Origin: Octopus vulgaris
Lineage: Eukaryota
DNA length: 64,000 nt
Direction of reading: 5' to 3'
Assembly: GCA_951406725.2 (NCBI GenBank)
Contig: OX597818.1
Location: 119,598,001-119,662,000, forward strand
The notes under the pieces were generated by a model. That model did no database searches. It was not told the origin of the DNA and saw nothing but the letters and a program-made list of their open reading frames with translations. Within the stretch, counting starts at the first letter, position 1, and every line of letters begins with the position of its first letter. Both the position numbers and the translations under genes were made by a program. Shown piece by piece: positions 2,080-60,429 of the stretch.

Positions 2080-4320
2080 TTCTGAGCCGAGGAATTAACG
2101 TTTTTATTAATTGAGTATTCTGACTAGTCTTCCTATTTCGCTTGCGATATTGAGTCCACTAGCATTCTGGTATTTTTGTCTAAATTTCTTAGATGGAGGC
2201 ATCGTTATTGTTCACTGATTTATTGGGATTTTGTGCTCATTTAAAAATTTTTTTGTTATATTCACAAACTTTCGACCATTGCCCCGATTGTCCTTCTTAT
2301 GCTTCTCGATAATGTCTAAACGCTGATGAGGGACAAACACAGACTCAGTCTTACACACACACATACATATCTATACACAGTTCTTTCAGTTTCAGTCTGC
2401 CAAATCAATTCACAGGTCTTTGGTCGGTCTGAGACTATAGTAGAAGACCCTTGCCCAAGATGCAACACAGTGGAACTGAACCAGGAACCATGTGGTTAGG
2501 AAGCAATCTACTGACTACGCAGCTACATATCATTAGCAGTTTAATTATTTAACGTATCGTGTACAGTTGAAGTTCTTATATCTCTTCATCTATGTTTTAT
2601 ATTCCTTCAGTTTTATTACAGTTTCGATTTCCTAACAGCTATATATCTTCTTTTTATTATCGAAGTTTTGTTTTTATTTGTTTCACTTTTTTTTCCTGTT
2701 TCAGTAAGAGAAATCGTATATTCTTTTCATAAATCAATTGATTTATGAAAGTATTTTATTCCTAGCAAATATTGACAAATTAAGTTTGCTAAAGCAATTT
2801 TGAATTTTTTTTTTTATTAATGTTTATTACTTTATATATTTCGTGTTAGCCATTTTTCTATCAACAGAAAATTTTCTCACAACGAAATATTCAGAAAAGA
2901 AATTAAAAAATTCAACCGTTTATATTTATCTTTCATTATATACTTTACATGACAATTTGCTGTACTGTTTGTAAATTTCAAAATTCGTTCAACAATCGAA
3001 TGTAACGCTTCTAAAGAATTTGTTTTCGCACTTTCTTTATTCTTGTTAGAGTAAATCATTATTGTCCTGTAAAAATTCTAACGTTTCGTTCTCACTTTAA
3101 CACTCACAAATGTTATAGTGACTTTCGTAAACAAACTTCCAACTCGTTAACTGGAGATTGAATCCAGAGAATGGCCACTCGACTGACTGGCATGAAATCT
3201 TATATAAACATACTTCATAGATGCGTTTCTCTCCTCCTTTACTACTGCAACTAAAATGGTATCTACTAATCGGAGCTTACTGTTATTATGCAAAATCAAT
3301 TCTGCTCCTTTTTTTTCAGATGGGAAGGCTAATATTATTGTTCTAGTTACTAGAAGTAGGAAACGGATGTGAAATTTAAGTTAATAAATTTGCAGTGAGT
3401 TTCAGTCTACAGATGTACGGCTGTTGACCCAAAGATCGATTAAATAAGTACCAGTCGAGTACTGGTGTTGATGTGATCGATTTACTTCTTCCCTATGAAT
3501 ACTGCTCGTGTGCCAAGATTTGAAACGCATAAACTTGAAGATTAAATGTTCCTCATAAGGAATGGTATATTAAAAGATATTTATTTTATATATTATTCTT
3601 CACATATGGTACATTTAGTTTGGAAAAAAATATCAATCATGCATTTCTAAACGATTTCAGAATGTTTTGTCTCAGTATATGTATAAGGTAATGTGGTGCT
3701 ATTTTGATAGAAATATGTCTTGACATTTCCAAAAAATGTTATATGCCGTTCAATAAATCTGCCAATATCATCTTAAGCACTCTGACCTGTCCGAGAAGAA
3801 TTGTCCATGAAAAATATCTCTAGTTTTATCCTAGGAAGGATTACATGTCATAGTAATAAATCTAGTTTTACCAATTTTCTCACCATAACCATGGCATCAT
3901 AACAGTTTTCTCTCATGTTTCAAAGATGATATCAAAATGGTTATAGTTATACATCTTACATGAGTTCCTCCATCGTTGGCGACGGTAGCTAGATGATTAG
4001 TAACTTAGATACTATTAAATTCGGAAAGGTCTTTGCGCCAACTTCAATATGAGACTCGAAAACCCGTCGCTGAAAGAATATTCTTATGTACAGAAGTTGT
4101 ATTCTTCTGCTGCTAATTTGGCAACCATGTATTTCAGTAGTCTTATACTATATTTCTTACATTGCCATAAAGGCAGAACGCAGATAATGTAGCTTTGCGA
4201 GCTGGACACAAACATTAATGAAATTAATGATAATGATGCACTAACGAAAAAGATAGGAGAAACCAGAAAGCGCCCGCCGACCCTCTGCTTCTCTATAACA
4301 TTGTTCTTTACAAAACACAT
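2080..4320 (-). mobile_element. Highly degenerate Helitron RepHel remnant (Rep domain)
   Basis: Frameshifted minus-strand translation at about 3836-3910 gives YDAMVMVRKL-KLD-FITMTCNP (Helitron Rep YQDAMAIVRKFGKPDLFITFTCNP), then FGNVKTYFY; IGRLV near 2125-2140; boundaries approximate. Confidence 0.6.
2375..2525 (-). mobile_element. SINE family A, 5' half, diverged
   Basis: Matches SINE-A head/core (GGAACTGAACCAGGAACCATGTGG, TTGCCCAAG). Confidence 0.8.
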
Positions 4321-4554
4321 GAACTGAGGACTTAACCCTCTTTCAATTTTTAAAATACCTTATTTGGACTTAAAAAGTCCATACAATACAATATACATAT
4401 ATATTTCAGTAATCTTATACTGATGCATCTGTTGACGTTCAAGATTAATGTTCGATCTTGGTTTCCATCTTTTATCTCCAAAAAGAGAGAATAATGTGTA
4501 ATCGTTGCATGAAAATTAAGGCTCGGTGTATCGTAACTGATGAGGGACGTTTCT

Positions 4555-27082: not shown

Positions 27083-27175
27083 TTTCGATCTTAATTTAAT
27101 AATTAGTAGTTATCTCCCTTGAATACATAACTCAGTTATTTAACCCCAGGTCAATTCTCATCGAACCAATTCATT

Positions 27176-27956
27176 GTGAGATGCGGGACCTGGGGATAGA
27201 CATGAGTGACGATGCATCTTTTTCTTCACACATCGCGAAGGTGGCGACAATGTGCAGACGACTCACTGGCTGGATCCTGAGGACATTCCGGACAAGAGAC
27301 TGCGAGACCATGTTGACACTATGGAGGACATTTGTCCTAAGCCGCCTGGACTACTGCTCCCAACTGTGGTCACCGCATAGTGTCAAACTAACCACAGAGC
27401 TTGAGACAATCCAAAGACATTTCACCAAGAGGATTTCCACCATGAAAGAAAAGAACTATTGGGAGAGGCTTAGGGAACTCAATTTGTACTCCTTGGAACG
27501 AAGACGAGAGAGATATGCAGTGATATACATATGGAAAATCCTGGAGGGACTAGCACCAAATTTGGGAATTGAGAGCTGTTCCAATCCCCGTACAGGACGT
27601 CACTGTGTGGTGCCAAAGGTCCCGTCTTCCACATCTAGGGTAAGGAGCAGATACTGTAATAGCCTGGGGTTCAGGGGCCCTCAGCTGTTCAACAAACTGC
27701 CAAGAGATCTAAGAGATCTACATGATGCGGATGTGGACATTTTCAAAAAACATCTAGACAAGCTGCTTTCCGGGATCCCAGATGAACCCACTGCCAGGTA
27801 CGAAGGTAACCTAAGGGCAGCAGCTACAAACTCTCTCTTAGATCAGTGGCCAGCCACGGCAAACTGGACTTAGAGAGGGTAGCAACAAGGGCGGTGCCCC
27901 AGCATGGCCTCAGCCGGATGGCTGAAACAAGTAAAAGACTAAAAGACTAAAAGACT
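27176..27956 (+). mobile_element. CR1-clade LINE 3' fragment (open ORF 27181-27873) with (AAAAGACT)n tail
   Basis: DLGIDMSDD..F..HI, LDYCSQLWSP, LETIQRHFTK, LYSLERRRER; 3'UTR ends GCTGAAACAAGTAAAAGACTAAAAGACTAAAAGACT. Confidence 0.9.
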
Positions 27957-32814: not shown

Positions 32815-33802
32815 ATATTGTTATATTTCGAAATGGTCATTTTGCCAGTTTAGCCAATAGAAACACACGCACTATATATTTGGTGTTATTTTGCTTCAGT
32901 ATTATTTATTTTTTACATTAAACTTAATCTTATTTCGGCCAGAGTTCTTTCGTCACACTCCTGTGACCGCATCAGTGATCCTTTGTTTTCTTCTCTCTTA
33001 TTTGTGTCTCTCCTTACTAACCGTCAGCCATTTTGTATTTCTTTTGTATGTCTTCATTTGCGCATGCTTATATCTCTATGTGCGTCTATGTTTATTTAGT
33101 GTGTGTGGGGGGATGCCTGTAATATTTGTATCTTCTGTTTATATACGTTCATGTAATTTGTTTTTGTTGTTGTTGTTTTTGTTTATTCTTATTTTGTTCA
33201 TTATTATTATCATTACATATGCTTGTATGTATGTATAACAACAATACTAGTAATAATAATAATAAATTTAAAAAAAGAGAAAAAAACTTATATAGTTATT
33301 TATTTCTATTTGTTCATTTATATTTTTTTTAAATTTATTATTATTATTACTAGTATTGTTATTATACATACATACAAGCATATGTAATGATAATAATAAG
33401 TGGATGTAAACACATGAACAAAATAAGAATAAACAAAAACAACAAAAACAAAAACAAATTACATGAACGTATATAAACAAAAGATACAAATATTACAGGC
33501 ATCCCCACACACACACACACTAAATAAACATAGACGCACATAGAGATATAAGCATGCGCAAATGAAGACATAGAATAGAAATACAAAATGACTGACGGTT
33601 AGTAAGGAGAGACACAAATAAGAAAGAAGAAAACAAAAGACCACTGATGCGGTCACAGGAGTGTGACGAAAGAACTCTGGCCGAAATAAGATTAAGTTTA
33701 ATGTAAAAAATAAATAACACTGAAGCAAAATAACACCAAATATATATAGTGCGTGTGTTTTTATTGGCTAAACTGGCAAAATGACCATTCCGAAATTTAA
33801 CA

Positions 33803-36059: not shown

Positions 36060-36384
36060 TGTGTATGTGACTGTGTACATGGTGTGTGTGTATGTGTGTA
36101 TGGATATATCATACGCATATTTGTATATATATATATGCATATGTCCTCTGTCTTCAGGAATCATAAAGAAAATTTATTGCAGCGAGGCAAAATGATAGAC
36201 GGAAGACACAATTGCAAACAAGCGCACGCAATATGTGAATATGTGTATATATATAGTAGTGGATATGTTTTTGTATGTGTATATGTATGTGTGTGTGCGT
36301 GAGGGAGAGAAAGAGGGATCGTGTGATTGTGTACACAAACATACACTTACTCATGCACACACGAACACACACACGCATATATAT

Positions 36385-37273
36385 ATATATATATAATTGA
36401 AGATGCCCGAAAGCAAACCTGTCTTGCGTTGGTTAATATTTTTTTCAATGATTTCGGTTGCATTTTGCTCTTGATAATTTTGTGTGTGCCTAAAATGTTC
36501 ATTGTTTTATCTCCTGTGAGAATGGGTAAATTTTGGATAATAATGTTGAAGGCTTCGTTGTTTCTAGGGTTATGTGTGGAGATGTATGAGAGCATTCTAA
36601 AGTCTGGTTTAGTATTTCGGTTGACTTCCCTTAATGTTCGTAGGACTATTTCCTTAGCTCGTTTAATGCCATCATTTATTAATGATATTGGGTAATGTTT
36701 TTTGATTAGTATTGATCTGAGTTCAAGGAGTCTTCGTTGACGAGTATTGGTGTCCGAAACTATAGTACAGATTCTTTTCGCTAGATTATAAGGTATATTA
36801 ATTTTTATGTGCTTGGGGTGGCATGGGTTGAATAATAGGTATTGTTTTGAATCTGTGGGTTTATAGAAGATGTCTGTGTTGATGTGGTTATTGACTAATT
36901 TAATTAAGATGTCAAGAAAAGGGATTTGTGTATTGGTGTGTTCCTTGGTAAATTGTATGTTGTTATTGATATTGTTGAATATTATTTTGAAATCGAGGAG
37001 TTTGTCCATGCTATCTTTCCAAAGTATAAAGCAATCATCTAAATACCTCTTCCAGTTCTCATTTAAATAACAATGAAATGAGGTGCCATATGTTTGTAGT
37101 GATGATTGGTATATTTTAAGTTCTAGGTAACCTATTACAAGGTTCGCGATCGCTGGGGCAGCTCGGGTTCCCATCGCAATTCCACATCCTTGTCGATAGT
37201 GGACTGTATCGAACATGAAATAGTTATTCAGTAGGATGAATTTTAGCGCTGCGATTATGAATCTATGCTTCAT
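36385..37273 (-). mobile_element. Penelope-like element RT fragment (open frame of about 300 aa, truncated at both ends)
   Basis: YRQGCGIAMGTRAAPAIANL, RYLDDCF, IPFLDI, YKPTDSKQYL..CHPKHIK..IPYNLAKRI (PLE RT and thumb); GIY-YIG domain absent. Confidence 0.9.
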
Positions 37274-37281
37274 GCGTCCTC

Positions 37282-37350
37282 GGAAGAGGGCTAGTGATTT
37301 TGTATGTGCGTATGGAAGAGGGCTGGTGATCTTGTATGGGCGTATGGAAG
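37282..37350. repeat. 32-bp tandem repeat, about 2.5-3 units, at the PLE 5' truncation
   Basis: GGAAGAGGGCTRGTGATYTTGTATGKGCGTAT repeated. Confidence 0.8.
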
Positions 37351-37729
37351 AGGGCTGGTGATCTTGACGTGTGCGTGTATGTATGTGTAGGTGTGAAAAT
37401 GTGGGTCTGGGAAGTGGTCAGTTTTGATGTGTGCGTGGTGGTGTGTTGTGATGTGATGTGATGTGTTGTGTGGTATGGTGGTGTAAGGTGTAGTGGTGTA
37501 GTGGTGTGGTGTGATGGTGTTGGGAGGTGGGGGAGGCGTGTTTAATTTTATCTCAAGTTATGTATAAAAATTCAACATGACACTGAAATATTATTCAAAA
37601 CTTAGTAAATTTCTTGTTTTAGAGCAAAGCTTGATAATGACCTCGAAGTTTCGGCTTGATTGCCTTCAGGAGATTGAATATGTATATGTGTGTATAGGAA
37701 TGTTTGTACGTAGGTAGGGGCCTTGTGTG

Positions 37730-42810: not shown

Positions 42811-42843
42811 TAGGCGTAGGAGTGGCTGTGTGGTAAGTAGCTT
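42811..42843 (+). mobile_element. 5' end of a SINE-A head split by Tx1 insertions (continues 50326-50364)
   Basis: AGGCGTAGGAGTGGCTGTGTGGTAAGTAGCTT, resuming as AAGTAGCTTGCTTATGAATCACATG..GGGTTCAGT. Confidence 0.85.
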
Positions 42844-44875
42844 CTTACCTTCGTCTGAGTTAGACGTGTTATTTTGCTGCTCCGGTTGCCACGTTGTTTC
42901 AACGTGAATTGTTGAACTTTCGACTCGACTGCAGGTAGGAATTTTGTATTTTTGCGAGCGAAGTGAAGCTTTATTACTTGCATTAATGTAATTTAGCATT
43001 AAATATTTTTTAGCAGATAATAAGGCTCCATTTTGCTCCGGATATAATTTTTCTGCCTGTTGTCGGGTGTGAAGAAAATTGTGTTTTTGAGGCGGCGTAG
43101 TCCGTCTACAAAAATTATTTTTGAAATTATCGTTGTGTTATCTACGGATTTACCAAGGATCATTTACCAAGGTGTTGTACCAACCATATACTTGGCCTGG
43201 AGTACAATTTTTGGCCGAAAAAGTGAAAAAATTCCTTTGTCTGAATTTGAACTCTCTTTCTCTGCCTATGATTCATTTGTAAAAAACTTTCTTTGAACTG
43301 CCATTTTAATTTTATTTCTCCCCTTCTGTTGCTTTTTTCATTCTCCTTTCTGTGTCTAATTTATTTTGTAACATTTTGAACTGTTTTTCTTAAGTTATGG
43401 CAAGGAATTTCACAGTGTGGGAATTAACACCTCCCAAAAAATATTTGAACGAACTTGAGGAAAAGACAGTGGTGCTGAGGACATATTCGAAGTCTCTCGG
43501 CACCATAATGGTCTTTCCGAAAGACACAATTATGAACGAACTGGCAGACTATATGCCAGCCGTTAAACACATTCAACGGGGAGCCAAATACGCAACGATT
43601 TGGTTGCTGTTTGACTCTCCTAAAGCAGCTTGCGATTTCGCAAGTAAGCCCATTGAGGGCGAAGAGATTCTGTTTCTCCCAAGCTATAAGGGGGAAAAAT
43701 TGATACGTTTATGGGTCTGCGGCCTGCCGCCCGGCTTTGAGCCCGAGTGGGTGGAAGATTCCATCCGCCGGGGTCTGAGTGGTGGTAGCGCCAAGATCCT
43801 GAACGTAAGAATGCAGCCTGCGGCTAACTGGGAAGGAGGAAAGGCTACTTTAACTCTGTGGACCCAGTCGGCCAAGAGTCTGGTTTTGCCGGACTTCCTA
43901 AAGATGGCCGGTTCCAAGTATCCGGTGATGCTAGAGGGACGCGCCCCCAAGTGTCACCTGTGCTCGGAGACCGGCCATATTAAGAAAACTGCCCCAGGAA
44001 CCAGAGTAGGATCCTGGAGAAGTTAATTTTAGAGCCTCTCCCTGCCTCACCAATGGAGGGAGAGAAACAAAGCGAGGAGGGGGAAAAACCCTCCGCCAAA
44101 AGAAAAAGAAGAGTGGGAAGCAATGGCGACCCACAAAAGGAACCGGAGGCTGCGGAAGAAAAAGAGAACCCGGTGCGTATAGCACCGGAACCTCAACCTC
44201 CCGAGGCCAAGCGTAAAAAGAAAAAGAAAAAGAGGAACGGGACGCCGCCAGTGGACTGTAACACCCAGAGGGCGTCTCCCAGGTGTCCTCCGGCGATTGT
44301 AATGCCGGACAAATTTTATGTAGTCCTCTTCCATAAAGGAGGCACTATAGAAAACGAAATACGTAAGAGGAGGAAGAGAAACGAATGGGAGGGACTTCGG
44401 TCCTGCATGGAGTATCCCGAGTGGCCTTCGCAGCTGGCTGCGGAGGTCCTACTCGAAAATGATATGTGCAGGATCGAGAATTCTTTCCCGGAGGATCTCT
44501 TGCAAGTCATACCAGTATGCGGAAGCCTGTCGATGGACGATTGCGTCATTAAAGCAAAAGAGTTCATCGGTCAGGTAACGTAAAATTGTAATTGTGTTAC
44601 ATTGTGACAGAGGTTTATTGCCTCTGAAGAGACTTTTAAAAAGTGTAAATTGTAAATTGAAATTTCTGTGAAAATTTTTTGAATTTTTTGTAATTTTTGA
44701 AATTTTGTAAATGATTGAAAAAAAAAAGAACATTGTTTTAGAGAAGCAAAAGTCGGCGGGCGCTTTCTGACTTCTCCCATCACCATCGTCATCCACCACC
44801 TCCATCATCCATTAATGTCCTTGTCCAGCCCGCAGCTACTCTGTGTGCTGCCCTAGTGGCAAATTATATAAAATA
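42844..44875 (+). mobile_element. ORF1-only non-autonomous Tx1-like retroelement
   Basis: About 550-nt 5'UTR, ORF1, about 290-nt 3'UTR ending GCCCTAGTGGCAAATTATATAAAATA; flanked by AAGTAGCTT; no ORF2. Confidence 0.8.
43397..44583 (+). CDS. Tx1-like ORF1 (gag-like, CCHC knuckle), about 395 aa after one frameshift repair near 43985
   Basis: EGRAPKCHLCSETGHIKK(N)CP restored by adding one A; then open to 44583; homologous to the downstream ORF1. Confidence 0.75.
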
Positions 44876-45281
44876 AAGTAGCTTTGCTAACCTCACTGAC
44901 AGAAGAGTGACTTTGCCTACCGTACTACGGTTTGGACGCGTTTTCTTCCCGGTAAGAGTTTTGCTGTGTTGTTAATTGTTGAATTCCTACTACTGAAAAT
45001 TTGCCTTTAAACGTTGCTGAACTGTCTTGTTCTCCGGTTTTACCGGGAAATAATTGAATAATTTCTTACCGTTGAACTGTTAGCCACTGTGGCTTTTTAT
45101 TTACGTGACTATATATAGTCCTGCCAGACTATTTTCGTGCCCCTCCCCCGAATGGGGGTGGGAATTGGAATTTTTGAACTGCTTTTTTGAACTACTTTGG
45201 AAGAAAAACTTTCTATAGGTTTCCCAGTTTTGTGGGAAACCAATATTCGTAATTTTTGTGTTGTCTAATTTCAACAGAATA

Positions 45282-46685
45282 ATGTCTGTTGAAATTATTC
45301 ACGAAAGTAGTGCTCTTGAGGAGAGCAATGTTAAAAAATTTTCTGAGGTAGCCGCAGTGGCTACCGAGAAGATTGACATCGATGTCAACCAGCTCGTCGA
45401 GCTATTTAAAAGAATGCAAGAGGAGGGTGGTGATGTTAAAATATCACCCTCCGCCAGTATCGTGGAGACCGAGAAGCGGACCGTAGTGTTTAAAACTTTC
45501 TGTCCACAAAGCAGAAGGTTCAAACACTTTGAAAAAAGCACCATCGAGAAATGCCTGTCCCCGATTTGGAAGGACATCGTGTACGTCGCCAGGGGACGGG
45601 CATATGGCACTGTGGATGTCCGCTTCTCGGGGGAAGAAATGGCCCGCGGGCATTCTGTGAACCCCCTAAAAACCAAGGAGGTGGTACTTTTTCCAAGCTA
45701 TAGGGGACGCAGGACGTCCCGGGTCAGGATTGTAGAAGCCCCGCCGGACGTAGATCCGGTAGAGGTAGTGGCCGCCCTGTTATATAAAAGGGCGGACAAA
45801 ATAAAAATACTAGAAGTAACATGCTCTACCCCTCGATTTTGGCTCGGGCGTAACATTAATATATTAATTCAAGGAACAGCGGAGGACCTGCAGCTCCTTC
45901 CTGAGAGGGTGCTCGTGGGCGAGAACGTAGCCCTCAGGGTACAGGTCGAAGGCCGAAAACCCACCTGTTACGCCTGCAGCAAAAAGGGCCACATTCGTGT
46001 AGACTGTCCAGACAAGCAAAAGAAACCGCAGACACCAGGCCCCTCAGATAATAAAAAAGTCCCTACCCTTGCAAACACACCTACCCCTACAAAAACAAAA
46101 AATCCCACTCCTGCTGTTACGGTGCCAACCCCAAAACAGACTGAAGAAAAAACCCAGCCCTCGCACTCACAAACCCCTACACTATTAAAACCTCCCACCC
46201 CCCTAAAAACTGCGGTGCCTACCGAACAAACTATTGCTACCACAGACGATACCATGGAGGTATCAGAGGGGGGATTTACACCAGTTCGTAAAAGAATTCG
46301 TGCAGCATCCCCGTCCACATCCCCTACAAAAAATAATAAAAACAAAGACACACCACAGACACGGAAAAAAAAATCCCGCTCAACTGGCCCAGAAAAAGAA
46401 GACAAAAAAGAAAATGAACTCATATTAATTGAATTCGACACACAAGACAAATACATAAACGATATTGTGGTTCAGCATCAGTCAGCAAGACTGTACAACA
46501 AATACAAAGATCGAAATAGACACGCGTGGATTGCGGAAACAACGTTCAAACAATTAAAAGACAGACACCCAAACGCCATCCGGCATATCGCGAACTTGCC
46601 GGACTATCTGAAGAAAGAGGAGAAAGAAGGGGCCCACAAACGTGTGGTGAGGTCGGCCCCCACCTCTCCAACGAAATGTAAGTAG
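45282..46685 (+). CDS. Tx1 ORF1 protein (CCHC knuckle, Pro/Thr-rich linker)
   Basis: Intact frame; EGRKPTCYACSKKGHIRVDC. Confidence 0.85.
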   Translation: MSVEIIHESSALEESNVKKFSEVAAVATEKIDIDVNQLVELFKRMQEEGGDVKISPSASIVETEKRTVVFKTFCPQSRRFKHFEKSTIEKCLSPIWKDIVYVARGRAYGTVDVRFSGEEMARGHSVNPLKTKEVVLFPSYRGRRTSRVRIVEAPPDVDPVEVVAALLYKRADKIKILEVTCSTPRFWLGRNINILIQGTAEDLQLLPERVLVGENVALRVQVEGRKPTCYACSKKGHIRVDCPDKQKKPQTPGPSDNKKVPTLANTPTPTKTKNPTPAVTVPTPKQTEEKTQPSHSQTPTLLKPPTPLKTAVPTEQTIATTDDTMEVSEGGFTPVRKRIRAASPSTSPTKNNKNKDTPQTRKKKSRSTGPEKEDKKENELILIEFDTQDKYINDIVVQHQSARLYNKYKDRNRHAWIAETTFKQLKDRHPNAIRHIANLPDYLKKEEKEGAHKRVVRSAPTSPTKCK

Positions 46686-46701
46686 AACCTTTACTTTTGT
46701 A

Positions 46702-49700
46702 ATGGCTTCGCTTAACCTTGGTTGTTTAAATGTGCGTGGTCTGAGTTCGAAGTGGAAGCAGGCTTGTTTCCTCGACGACCTCAGATCACATGATATACAT
46801 GTGATGGTTGCTACAGAGACCAAGCTGGACAGCCTACAAACCTTCTCGCCTCTCCTGAATGGCTACGAGAAAATCATGTCTCCTGGCCAGACCGGAGGGC
46901 GAGGGGCGTAGTGGTACTGATCCGTAAAGACTTGGCTCTACAGACAAGTACAGTCTATGTAGACCCAGAAGGTGGGCTGGTCGTCCTTGATGTGACATAC
47001 AGCAGTAAGGCCTTCAGGTTGATCGGACTCTATGCACCTTGTGCTAGAGGTTTCCAAACTGATTTTTATCGGCGCCTAGAGGGCTTTCTCGTGACGTCGA
47101 AGACTTTAGTGATATTAGGGGACTTTAATGCTATCGTTGACGTACACATCGATAGCGTTGGCTCGATCTATAGGAAAGTGAACTCACGTCTCGTGGATCT
47201 GCTTAAGCGGTTTCAGCTAGCAGATCGTTACAGACTTGACCATCCGAACGTCCCAGAGTGGACCTGGATGAGTGGCGACGGAAGGTTCAAGTCTTATCTA
47301 GACAGGATAGTGATAAGAACTAGAGATAAGTCTAGTTTTAGTTGTCCACAGCTCGTCCAGGTGCCCTATACTGACCATAGAATGGTCACGTGTAGACTGG
47401 ACATAGATAGCACACTTAAGATAGGAACCGGCTACTGGAAGCTGAACAAGTCTATTTTGACACGCGAGGCATACCGTAGCCGGATTAAGGTGTTAGTGCA
47501 GAGGGCGTTAACCGGAGCCGTGGTTAATAACCGGTGGTGGTTCACCCTCAAAAGAGCCATTCGATTCGAGTCCATTAGATTTAGTAAACAACTAAGACTA
47601 GATAGGGCTAGAATAGAAGGGCAACTAGTTAAGAACTTAGAGGAGGCGTTGAGGTTGGGCTCTGCATCTCACATTTTAGCGGCGAGAACGGCATTAGACC
47701 GTCACCTCAAAACCAAACATGAGGGATGTAGAGTCCGGGCTAAAGTACGAGCATTGGGCCGTGAGGGAATTAATGTTGCCGGATGGGCCCGTACGATAGA
47801 AACACAGCGTGGAAACGATGCCACAATTGGGTCTCTTGTTGATGAAAACGGATGCACGATCAAGAAGCGGGACGAGATGTGTGAGGCACTCCACAAGCAC
47901 TTCGCCGAGTTGTTCGGGAGGTGCGGGACGCTAGATCATGGTGAGGCCCTTAGGGACTTCCTGTCTGGTGGCCCGCGCCTCTCGACACGAGAGGCTGAGT
48001 GCTGTGAAGGGCCAATCACAGCCGAGGAAGTAATCGAGGTGTTGGGCAAGTGCCCCGGGGAGAAGTCGCCGGGTCTCGATGGTCTGCCCTATGAATTTTA
48101 TAGAAGTATGCCAAACTTGTTCGGGCACCTGCTGGCTAGCGTCTACGCCAACTGGCAGCAGAATGGGAGAATTCCCAAGTCTGCGAGCCGGGGGGCGGTG
48201 ACCTTGATCAGGAAGGACCCGAACAAGGGGGACGAGATAGGGAACTTCAGGCCCATAACTCTGTTAAACACAGAGTTAAAGATTCTGGCCAAGGTGCTAG
48301 CAAAAAGGTTGGCGCGGGTCGTGGACAAACTTGTCGGGGAAGCGCAAACGTGCGCTATCCCCGGCAGAACGATCCACGACAATCTCCACCTTATACGCTA
48401 CTCCTTAGAGAGGGTGGGGAAGCTTTCTGGCGCAGGGGGAGCACTGGTACATTTAGACCAGTCCAAAGCATTTGATAGGGTCGACCATCGGTACCTGGCG
48501 GCGGTCCTCGGAGAGGCTGGCCTAGGCCCGACCTTTCGAGGTTGGATCGCTGCTTTGTATAGCGACATCGAGTCTGTAGTCAAGGTGAACGGTTCCTGTT
48601 CGACGCCGTTCAGGATCGAGCGTTCAGTTCGTCAAGGGTGTCCCCTGTCCTCGCTCCTATACGTATTGGCTCTTGAGCCTTTGCTGCGGAAGTTGGAGGC
48701 ACTAGGGGCGCGCCGCATGATCTATGGTGTGGAAGAGGAGCTACGGCGTATGCGGATGACACCTCCATCATTGTGGCAGACGAAGGCCAGCTTCCAGTGG
48801 TGGAAGAGGCCATAAAAAGCTACGAGGCGGTGGCAGGAGCAAAGGTTAACAAGGACAAGTCGGTCGGTTTGCAACTCGGCACCTGGAGGGGCAAGCCGAT
48901 GCCGTCCAATAACGTCGTAGGGCGTTGGACGGAAGGTCCTGTTAAGCTGCTCGGAGTCTGGTTCGGGCCAGACCTCCAGATTGAGAAAATTGGAGTGAGG
49001 TGGCCAACAAGGTGACCGCTCTAACCCAGACCTGGTCTGGGCGGGCGTTATCCCTGCTAGGGAAGGCGGAGGTGGTGCAGATGTTTATAGCATCAGTAAT
49101 CACCTACCGTCTGACCGTGGTGCCTTGCCCCGATTTGTGGCTGAACAAGTTGGAGAGAATCCTTTTCCGATTTTTGTGGAAAGGAGGAAAGCCACTTGTA
49201 AAGCGCTCTGTCTGCTGCCAGAAACCGCTAAAGGGTGGGCTAGGGATGCCTTGGCTGAGGATGCGAAAACTCGCGTTAAGGTTGAGGCACCTCTGGCTTT
49301 ACCTGGATGGAGAGCAGGTGTGGTCGCCGCACGTCCGGTTCTACCTTCCCCAGTTAACATCCCTAACGGACATCGGTGCATGGATCAAGCGGAGACCTAA
49401 ACTGAGTGAATGGCATTTGGAGTGCCGTCAGGCGCTCCAGCTACTATCTCGGGTGGGCAACGCCGGCAACAGGAGTTCCACCACGGATTTCTATAGCGGG
49501 TTAGTGGAGATTAAGTCCGAAGACGCCTTGGGGGAGACCCTGGGCTACGATGAAAATCAGTTGATCAACCTGTTCCGGAGGACGTTCGGGCCGGGGTATC
49601 TGGATAATTACCAGAAATCCCTAGCCTGGCAGTGTTTCCGTGCGGCTTTACCTGTTCGCGACAAGCTGTCAAGGCACGGTAGTGCCGTCTCGCCGACATG

Positions 49701-50097
49701 CCCGCGATGTGAGCAGGATAGGGAGACCGTCTTGCACGCATTCGTGGAGTGTCCGGAGTTATCGGGACTGATAGCTTTTGTAGAACAACTGTTGTCAGTG
49801 ATGGGAAGAGTACAGCTATCAGCTGAGTCTATCATCGAGATTGTGCCGCCCCCTTTCCTTAACAGGGAAAGAAAGGCTTGTTTTCTGTGTAGTAGCCATA
49901 CTGAAAGAAACAGTATGGAAGACGCGTACGAAAGGTATAGTGACAGGCACCTTTGTCTCCGGCCAGGGGTTGATTAACTTTTTAGTTACCACCTCAGTAG
50001 CAAAATCAGGCTGGAGAAGAGGTGTCTGTCACGAGATATGTTTGTGAAAAGATGGAAGCCTGTGGCATACAAGATGGGTATGTTTGGCACCAGGTAA
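46702..50097 (+). CDS. Tx1 ORF2: APE endonuclease, reverse transcriptase, C-terminal zinc finger; about 5 frameshifts
   Basis: LNVRGL, TETK, GDFNA, LDRI, TDHR, GYWKLN, KSPGLDGLP, FRPITLLN, DQSKAFDRV, VRQGCPLS, AYADD (shifted frame), GGLGMP, CPRC..ETVLHAFVEC. Confidence 0.9.
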
Positions 50098-50439
50098 GTG
50101 TGACCGGATCAGAAAGTAAAGGTTCTACCCGGATGGCTGGGTGTCCGTCCTTCGACATGATCATTAATATTTTTAAACATTGCCTTCGTAAAATTCATTG
50201 TTTATAATCTTATCCGTAATTTCATTCGAAAATTGTAACTGTGTTAAGCTACTTCACCCTTTATATTTGTCTGTCCTTATTTGTCCCCTCTTTGTAAATG
50301 CCTAAATGGCAAATTATATGAAATAAAGTAGCTTGCTTATGAATCACATGCTTTCGGGTTCAGTGGGACTGAACCTGGAACCATGTTGTTTGGAAGCAAG
50401 TAACTTACCACATTTGTATGTACTTATATATTCTTTTCT

Positions 50440-50808
50440 AATTTAGGCACAAGGTCCGACATTTTTGTGGAGGGGGCCAGTCGATTAGATCGACCCCAGT
50501 ACGCAACTGGTACTTAATTTATCGACCCCAAAATGCAAAGCCGACCTTGATGGAATTTGAACTCAGAACGTAAAGACAAACGAAATACCACTAAGCATAT
50601 TGCCCGACCTGCTAACGTTTCTTATTTCTTTATTGCCCACAAGGGGCTAACCATAGAGGGGACAAACAAGAACAGACAAAGGGATTAAGTCGATTATATC
50701 GACCCCAGTGCATGACTGGTACTTTATCGACCCCGAAAGGATGAAAGGCAAAGTCGACCTCGGCGGAATTTGAACTCAGAATGTCACGTTTCTGCCAGCT
50801 CGCCGCCT
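50440..50808 (-). mobile_element. SINE-B with a second SINE-B (50623-50785) nested in its head
   Basis: ACGTTTCT duplicated at 50615-50622 and 50786-50793. Confidence 0.85.
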
Positions 50809-51493
50809 TTATACACATGCTCATACACTCGTAATTATTGTGTGCGCGCGTGTGTGTGTGCGTGCGTGCGTGTTTGTATGTCACTGTGTGTGAGCGTGTC
50901 ACTGTGTGTGTATGTGTATGTGTGTCACTGTGTTTGTGTGTGTCACTGTGTGCGTGCCGTAATGAGTTAGGCCAATTAAAATATCATTAGCATCTTCAGA
51001 TTTCTGTAGAAATTCAGGATGCTAATAGCTTTTTTCCGTTTCTATTCACGCTGGCAACTGGAAGACTTTGGAAATATAATCCTTATTTCTTTAAAATATC
51101 CCTTGGATTCTGTTTCCGATAAATTTCCTCTTAAAATTTACATTTTGTAAGGTGACAATCTTGCAGAGTATTAAATATTCGATTCAATTCCAAACCTTTA
51201 ACAAGTTGAATTTTTTTTTCCTTTTTCTTTTTGTCATTTTGTCAAATACTTTTAAGTAGCGCACAATCTAATCTTGCGGTATTTAATCGAAGTCTTTTGC
51301 TCTTTGAGGTCAAATCCCGATGCGGTCAGATTTTTCTCTTCACATTGCCGGGGGTGATAAAATGAAATACTAAACAAATACTGAGTTGATTAAATCGATT
51401 CGGCCCCCACACTAACGTGTTAAAATACGTGACATTCCGATCATATAAAATTTTATAGTAATGGTATTATCATTAAAGCGTAATCTTTAGCAC

Positions 51494-59989: not shown

Positions 59990-60412
59990 AGTCTAGAATG
60001 TTGTCAGGCGCTCATCGCTTTCTGCCAGTCGAACAGTGGGATCAAGGACATTCCATTCAAGCAATCCTAAGAGAATTAGTGGATATAAAAAGTGACGAGG
60101 TTCTCGGAAAGATTCTTAATCTCGACGTAAAAGAAATGACTTGTCTGTTCCGGAGAAGTTTCTGATCGGGGATTACAATGGGAAAGAAATTTCCAGGAGT
60201 CTTTGACCTGACAGAGCTACGGAGTGATACTACCGGTTCGAGAGAAACTCCACAGGCACGGATGTGCCGTCAGAGGGGCTTGTCTGAGATCTACGGGGCG
60301 TGAGGAAACCGTTCTACACGCACTCATTTAGTGTCCGGGTATTGCTGACTTGTGAAGTTATGTCGAACAGCTACTGTCACATATGGGAAGGATCCGGTAA
60401 TCCTACGAGTAC
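59990..60412 (+). mobile_element. Decayed Tx1 ORF2 C-terminal fragment
   Basis: ECCQALI, LPVREKLHRHGCAV, EETVLHALI*CP, VEQLLSHMGR are homologous to 49420-49820. Confidence 0.8.
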
Positions 60413-60429
60413 ATAAATCGGCTGCTATT

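Follow-up and report, generated by a model that had tools for sequence, protein, structure and literature searches.

Tandem insertions of a Tx1-like LINE and an ORF1-only element at one site in an abundant tRNA-like SINE head of Octopus vulgaris

We analyzed a stretch of 64,000 nucleotides (nt) of the Octopus vulgaris genome (GenBank assembly GCA_951406725.2, contig OX597818.1, positions 119,598,001 to 119,662,000, forward strand), hereafter called the window, with positions counted from its first letter. Between 42811 and 50412 it holds an array of two retroelements within a short interspersed nuclear element (SINE-A): an element with only the first open reading frame (ORF1), named E1, and behind it a Tx1-like long interspersed nuclear element (LINE), named E2 (Table 1). 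The array was confirmed to have arisen by two separate insertions, both at GGT^AAGTAGCTT within the tRNA-like head of this abundant SINE. The split head GGCGTAGGAGTGGCTGTGTGGT terminates at 42834, and both inserts share the 3′ terminus TGGCAAATTATATRAAATA. The initial annotation, made from the letters alone, had described a SINE-A head split behind its A-box, three copies of AAGTAGCTT and common element ends, all of which were verified, but it overlooked an inverted fourth copy in the 3′ untranslated region (UTR) of E2. The A-box-like word TGGCTGTGTGG was called against the A-box consensus. In the window AAGTAGCTT has nine matches where 0.50 are expected, and none of 100 shuffles reached nine; besides the three that frame the inserts, these comprise four intact SINE heads, one isolated match (29535) and the inverted copy on the minus strand. 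The remainder of the SINE is present after the array as annotated, but stops at +39, where an inverted head fragment truncates it.

Table 1. Features of the array; positions are those of the window.
Feature	Position	Strand	Basis or remark
Host SINE-A head, 5′ part	42811..42834	+	Like intact window heads; weak alignment with genomic tRNA-Ala/Lys
A-box-like TGGCTGTGTGG within SINE-A head	42823-42833	+	
Target-site duplication core, copy 1	42835..42843	+	
E1, 2,032-nt ORF1-only non-autonomous element, starts with target-like CTTACC	42844..44875	+	
E1 ORF1 (RRM-like region and CCHC knuckle), frameshift near 43985	43397..44583	+	
E1 3′ UTR antisense motif AGCTACT, reverse complement of target	44834..44840	+	
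E1 terminal hairpin TGCC-N5-GGCA and tail	44849..44877	+	Common to several families
Target-site duplication core, copy 2, E1/E2 junction	44876..44884	+	
E2, 5,441-nt Tx1-like LINE	44885..50325	+	99.63% identity to intact copy L085
E2 ORF1, 467 amino acids, intact, CCHC knuckle	45282..46685	+	
E2 ORF2 (APE endonuclease, reverse transcriptase, zf-RVT), broken	46702..50097	+	
E2 3′ UTR antisense motif AAGCTACTT, exact reverse complement of target core	50246..50254	+	Predicted pairing with read-through flank
E2 terminal hairpin TGCC-N5-GGCA and tail	50299..50327	+	Sequence
Target-site duplication core, copy 3	50326..50334	+	
Rest of host SINE-A body, up to +39	50335..50364	+	Sequence comparison with heads
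Inverted SINE-A head fragment truncating host SINE	50361..50412	-	

Site choice was followed through the genome (2.80 Gb) with queries made of tails only, so that the flanks could not bias the outcome. For each element the best 30 of 40 scored tail loci were used, the window's own copy included; for E1 the search had yielded 1598 candidates. All 30 E2 tails are followed by AAGTAGCTT, and all 30 E1-like tails by the site, 29 times as exact AAGTAGCTT and once as a one-base variant. Genome-wide, 104 of the 108 exact E2 tails have AAGTAG next, which is impossible by chance because strict patterns for the T-variant of the site (AAGTAG; the A-variant reads AAGAAG) find only 81,841 empty sites in 2.8 Gb. 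Three of the four exceptions were read: one is a SINE site shifted by one base and two are unrelated sequences, none of them a tRNA. The strict patterns also returned 656 occupied T-variant and 98 occupied A-variant sites, which puts the occupancy of the SINE site at about 1%. A broad tail pattern had 948 matches, 515 of them followed by AAGTAG; as these are mixed with other SINE and A-variant sites, the ratio is no estimate of specificity. The first 100 of these matches comprised 79 element tails and 21 tails from another SINE (seven read, 14 by tail sequence). In a hand tally of the 79, 61 were followed by AAGTAG, 13 lay at A-type SINEs, two at a slipped or variant form of the site, one elsewhere in the SINE and two off target. 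Copies therefore do not lie at random, the outcome on which the proposal of a SINE-targeting LINE depended, and this group of Tx1-like LINEs has a strong site specificity for the SINE head. The endonuclease would recognize the head, and the SINE could serve as a safe harbor, as the initial annotation suggested.

Related tails occur in other settings. One element tail (L194) lies at a second AAGTG word, deeper in the SINE-A body. At seven loci (L186, L192, L197, L201, L205, L250, and L260) a SINE variant ends in a passenger-like hairpin and tail (CTGCCCTTGTGGCAAA...GAAATA), followed by AT-rich non-target sequence. In sampled DNA, 35 of 93 E2-like tails of the SINE-B type, which lack the antisense motif described below, occupied one of two fixed positions within their own family, and none of the 93 lay at the SINE-A site; SINE-B with E2-like tails is probably a sister LINE/SINE system.

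The two units are separate. Directly upstream of E2 copies lies a SINE head in 30 of 33 cases and another ORF1-only unit in the remaining three, and behind E1-like copies comes SINE body at 20 of 30 loci and another element at the remaining 10. The E2 tails are 97.6% alike, against 90.2% for the host SINE bodies. Among 15 truncated copies with both junctions, kept after 10 full-length E2 copies had been removed by hand, 10 have exact duplications of 8–16 nt and in five the duplication breaks early at a mismatch; the commonest length is 8–11 nt, so the fixed 9-nt duplication first assumed did not hold. Two further copies have small target deletions. Contigs from other sequencing runs, one of which may be the source sample, contain seven joints in which a SINE head runs into an internal position of E1 or E2, as expected from further truncated insertions, and the element is present in contigs from runs of several studies; none of these contigs spans from the unique flank of the array across the SINE head.

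E2 is the autonomous-type LINE of the pair. In the window its ORF2 is disrupted by small deletions at five places (near 46903, 48705, 48986, 49881, and 49979); among 34 units with E2 tails, six have a full ORF2 of 1133 amino acids with APE, reverse transcriptase (RT) and zf-RVT domains, and two of these also have a full ORF1. Intact helper copies are L075 and L085. In an intact copy Exo_endo_phos, RVT_1 and zf-RVT score above the Pfam cut-off, and the nearest solved relative of ORF2 is human L1 ORF2p (E 8e-67; R2, E 6e-20). The zf-CCHC match of ORF1 (20.7 bits) is marginally below the cut-off of 20.8, with the CCHC motif kept in four ORF1s. Insertions bear the signs of the target-primed kind, namely a fixed 3′ end, 5′ truncations, target duplications and no long terminal repeats (LTRs). 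With an APE-RT-zinc ORF2, a separate ORF1 and these signs, E2 belongs to the L1/Tx1 group. Within that group it is best called Tx1-like, its place in the Tx1 clade being tentative: of reference proteins the RT tree holds neither Tx1 nor an animal L1 but only, beside a plant outgroup, a Stylophora sequence (32% identical) with the name 'Transposon TX1 149 kDa', and a database search for named Tx1 anchors returned four proteins, no reference element among them. An ORF2 from Argonauta, 60–65% identical, is among the two closest database relatives. A second autonomous family (family B; L104, 5,721 nt, ORF2 92.7% identical), whose ORF2 is intact in L104, occupies the same SINE site.

E1 is of another kind. 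Similarity to ORF2 was found in none of 20 E1-like units, nor in the E1 of the window, and E1 is therefore an ORF1-only element and not a second full LINE; of the 'two distinct Tx1 elements' of the initial annotation, the two separate insertions stand, but only E2 is a LINE of the autonomous type. An intact ORF of 384–415 amino acids is present in nine of 19 E1-like units of 2.0–2.5 kb. Pfam gives a weak zf-CCHC match for the E1 ORF1, and the Atlas lead for the ORF1s is to ZCCHC3-like RNA-binding domains. E1-like ORF1s are 43–52% identical among themselves and 27–29% to that of E2, indicating that these units form several old passenger families. In coding for ORF1 only and forming its own family, E1 is a passenger like HAL1 (half-L1); HAL1 proper, a mammalian L1 derivative, is ruled out by the kinship of the E1 ORF1 with that of E2. 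Young families terminate in a hairpin of the TGCC-N5-GGCA type and RAAATA, with no poly(A). At L089, L111, L188-L190, and L209, different ORF1 bodies and 5′ ends share one 3′ tail, which suggests that passenger families have swapped tails.

The SINE-A head is tRNA-like in that its box-like words align with genomic tRNA-Ala and tRNA-Lys; Rfam and ARAGORN found no tRNA match for it, and Rfam matches over the array and an intact head were at chance level. The SINE's own end, read in two copies, is GAAACAAG(TAAAAGAG)n and is unlike the element tail. SINE-A is therefore the host and not a passenger of the LINE, and a role as its partner SINE was rejected on the same ground. The initial annotation had named 'SINE or tRNA' as the target, of which the SINE holds; the site is absent from the 25 distinct genomic tRNAs obtained, an incomplete sample (63 candidates scored, 34 matches, few isotypes). 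Apart from this, one locus (L156, G000:C12:25267077-25270148) has seven tRNA genes, mostly tRNA-Cys, in 3 kb.

Variants of the SINE were defined on 83 empty heads in sampled DNA, 10 of which remained unclassed. Their divergence, measured from the column mode, is 11.7% for A (n = 10), 6.9% for T1 (n = 43) and 2.9% for T2 (n = 20), that is, they differ in age. The distinguishing columns are +4 with +14 and +13 with +54, so that three of the four that separate subfamilies in the 75-nt head fall within the LINE site; this clustering may be chance, +13 and +14 being in a variable loop-like region. The element families are split by target, the older ones residing in the older variant (AAGAAG...CTTCCC) and the younger ones in the younger (AAGTAG...CTWACC). 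The hosts of 33 E2 copies include 20 of T2 and none of the A type. Autonomous copies of the A type are old and exist as fragments. The endonucleases of A-type and T-type families differ in two loops, near residues 149–158 and 190–196, a protein change that would be able to explain retargeting.

The 5′ ends of the elements resemble the target as well. That of E2, TGCTAACC, holds target positions +10 to +16, and its CTAACC start is kept in 10 of 10 full-length copies hosted by T1-type SINEs, indicating that the 5′ bases arrive with the element; A-site families start GCTTCC. With such ends each insertion rebuilds about 16 nt of the site on both sides, which makes stacking possible. Head-to-tail arrays are indeed common, and include three E2 units, five ORF1-only units, and seven 2-kb units with an E2. 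In the last (G000:C1:223694773-223706789; L257, L258, L089) the seven ORF1-only units are stacked in one SINE head, followed by the E2; six were compared and are 99.2–99.9% identical within the array against 98.7–99.4% to another array, so that local duplication may have contributed there. On the order of insertion the clues are opposed: one array suggests that new copies enter beside the SINE head, whereas in the window the closest relative of E2 is 99.6% identical and that of E1 98.4%.

In most families the site recurs as its reverse complement approximately 35–80 nt ahead of the 3′ end. Across 165 distinct junctions, this antisense motif reads AGCTAC at 98 T sites and AGCTTC at none, while at A sites it reads AGCTTC in 20 cases and AGCTAC in six (five from one family, one mis-registered); one junction falls outside these classes. 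Motif and target thus match in 118 of the 124 junctions with a callable motif. Both of the unrelated UTR types show the switch: the E2 type has it once, and in the E1 type there are five target and four motif changes, the target label requiring 5–6 changes in bootstrap replicates of the tail tree. The motif stands at different spacings in the two types, and its complementarity extends to 10–12 bases. Among 27 matched family representatives, motif and flank are predicted to pair (P > 0.5) in 19, a number that drops to 10 when base +4 is swapped, and a read-through of the window's E2 is predicted to fold back its motif on the flank (z -2.0). Pairing of motif-less families with the flank at +17 to +32 was considered and is unsupported, z being below -2 in one of 14; z-scores of motif-bearing tails from that same test are partly circular.

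Taken together, it is in our view more likely than not that the Tx1-like LINEs and their ORF1-only passengers have their site set by the APE endonuclease and use a read-through RNA on which the motif folds back. ORF2 would nick the bottom strand at T^A and prime reverse transcription there. In both elements an AATAAA spans the 3′ junction (44872-44877 in E1, 50322-50327 in E2, the latter without a poly(A) tail), and a polyadenylation signal finished only by target bases (GAAATA|AAG) would let the RNA end downstream in the target and so account for precise 3′ junctions that lack poly(A). The antisense motif would pair with this read-through and close a stem around the terminal hairpin, so that the best template would be supplied by copies in the right site. 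At the other end, the RNA would start within the upstream copy of the duplication, and cDNA made from the target-like 5′ end could anneal to the top-strand overhang. ORF1-only families would borrow ORF2 via the common tail, and LINE families would have followed as new SINE subfamilies displaced old ones.

Several observations weigh against this proposal. No motif is callable at 40 of the 165 junctions, whole A-site families included, and the family with five AGCTAC junctions at A sites has a perfect T-type motif. Trees of the 170–190 nt tails are weak, each with one independent pair on well-supported branches, and no formal significance can therefore be given to the covariation of motif and target. 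The motif of the window's E1 is unpaired with the flank in the minimum-energy fold, in which another hairpin is preferred. An older family, probed with the fragment at window positions 4146-4309, is on target at 21 of 30 loci, most misses still beginning AAG. Finally, many A-site loci had been picked via the target pattern; the tail of an A-type autonomous copy was therefore also searched on its own, and of the 22 further intact ends that it gave (judged by eye) 20 are CTTC-type at A-type SINEs, one is CTTC-type with an unclear target and one is CTAC-type at a T site.

Some of these points lend weight to another account, clearly less probable in our judgment, in which site choice is due to the endonuclease alone and the motif would be a neutral by-product, arising, for example, by templated conversion between quasi-palindromic arms or by shared ancestry and a single switch. 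Motif-less families are still on target, the A- and T-type endonucleases do differ in their loops, and the independent motif–target pairs stay below significance. Against it, the motif is kept at varied spacing in two unlike UTR types, reaches 10–12 complementary bases and switches in both types, and the target label needs 5–6 changes on the E1-type tree. A rather doubtful possibility makes the motif an antisense guide to the top strand of the target, with the read-through bound to the bottom strand and the RNA helping to pick the site as well as the second cut. For this reading, the motif changes with the target base, the commonest duplication is near the motif in length, and the motif-less SINE-B with its E2-like tail never reached the SINE-A site. 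That second SINE may rely on another helper, however, duplications reach 14–16 nt, motif-less families hit the target, and the family with the perfect T-type motif sits at A sites.

It is very unlikely that a tRNA gene is the real target and the SINE a by-catch. The head is tRNA-like and our tRNA sample was small, but the site occurred in none of its distinct sequences, the E2 exceptions that were read led to no tRNA, and the families track variant bases specific to the SINE. We give practically no credence to E1 and E2 being one element with two ORF1s, or to the LINEs having been copied inside a SINE-LINE unit. The pair is adjacent here and E1-type/E2 junctions recur in two further loci of 30, yet the upstream context of E2, the downstream context of E1 and the identities of inserts and hosts refute both ideas: E2 mostly lies directly behind a SINE head, and the host SINEs are more diverged than their inserts. 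Moreover, 5′-truncated copies begin at many positions behind intact heads, and in the three-E2 array two of the units resemble dispersed copies more than they resemble one another, the third being tied.

The window contains other repeats. On the minus strand at 4146-4420 lies a short 3′ fragment of the older ORF1-only family, off target and with a duplication of about 20 nt. Next to the array, two nested SINE-B copies (50428-50810, minus strand) are present, the upper one having an E2-like tail and sitting in the head of the other. An old, decayed piece related to the ORF2 C-terminus (47–51% identity) lies at 60076-60415 (plus strand), and two 245-nt inverted arms (32863-33107 and 33512-33756; 96% complementary, 404 nt apart) form an element resembling a miniature inverted-repeat transposable element. 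Open frames of 256 codons (27103-27870, plus strand) and 356 codons (36350-37417, minus strand) look like fragments of other retroelements, presumably of a LINE and a Penelope-like element, respectively, judging by their motifs.

Sequence-specific insertion is typical but not universal for the Tx1 clade, as seen in E2 with its 104 of 108 tails, and Dewa and Mutsu are sequence-specific families of this clade. Together with Keno, Kibi and Koshi, they resemble the octopus elements in inserting into multicopy sequence, but the targets of these five are host RNA genes or simple repeats, whereas the octopus target is a non-partner retroposon with sequence turnover. In the excerpts of the literature on which this and the following comparisons draw, Keno targets U2 snRNA, and Kibi and Koshi target microsatellites (PMC4494074). 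Closer are the Tx1 families that target transposons: Xenopus Tx1 in the piggyBac element Tx1D, crocodilian Tx1-Mar in Mariner-N4_AMi and Tx1-9_AMi in Harbinger, and Tx1-8_Crp and Tx1-4_AMi in LTR elements, with SINEU-3 as a passenger (PMC4494074). As here, an APE-type LINE prefers one site in an abundant mobile element and shares it with non-autonomous passengers, and tandem insertions sandwich a duplication, of 16 nt in SINEU-3 (PMC4494074). The octopus system differs in its tRNA-like SINE head as target, its ORF1-coding passengers, the lack of poly(A), and families split by target subfamily with a co-varying antisense copy in the 3′ UTR, none of which appears in those excerpts (PMC4494074). 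HAL1 likewise is non-autonomous and encodes only ORF1p, but E1-type elements are site-specific, have a structured tail in common with their helper and form arrays (PMC5753468). HeT-A, TART and TAHRE of Drosophila also form head-to-tail arrays of a gag-only passenger and RT-encoding helpers; they attach to chromosome ends, whereas the octopus elements use an internal site rebuilt at each insertion (PMC5537684). For R1Bm and SART1Bm the proposal is that sense RNA identical to the target, downstream of or within the 3′ UTR, anneals with the bottom strand at the nick; only sense-strand annealing is described there, and the octopus 3′ UTR additionally holds an antisense copy (PMC7265360). The octopus repeat annotation lists 13 recently active L1-Tx1 families, and the words 'target' and 'nested' are absent from its excerpted text (PMC13282606). 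A SINE-targeting LINE does not appear in the excerpts of PMC4640811, PMC3747384, PMC8869645, and PMC9148063, and no SINE-targeting Tx1 family was found in the open literature; Repbase, supplements (e.g., the target lists of Kojima, 2015) and subscription papers were outside this search and could contain one.

Transposon-targeting Tx1 elements are thus known; the octopus elements add a SINE head as target and an antisense motif that switches with it. Whereas SINEs usually exploit LINEs, here the relation is turned around: a non-partner SINE gives the LINEs a renewable landing site, and its promoter-like head is split by them. As the dated SINE subfamilies differ inside the site (+4, +13, +14) and the LINE families match them by age, they provide a natural series on target change in an APE retrotransposon, and with intact helpers, intact passengers and two target variants, simple swap experiments are possible. 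If the motif acts as a guide, an APE-type retrotransposon would be partly RNA-directed and could be retargeted by a one-base change in its RNA, which would explain how LINE families follow successive SINE subfamilies. If, as in the fold-back reading we prefer, the 3′ structure of the RNA is completed by target-derived bases, this would be a mechanism that keeps site specificity under selection.

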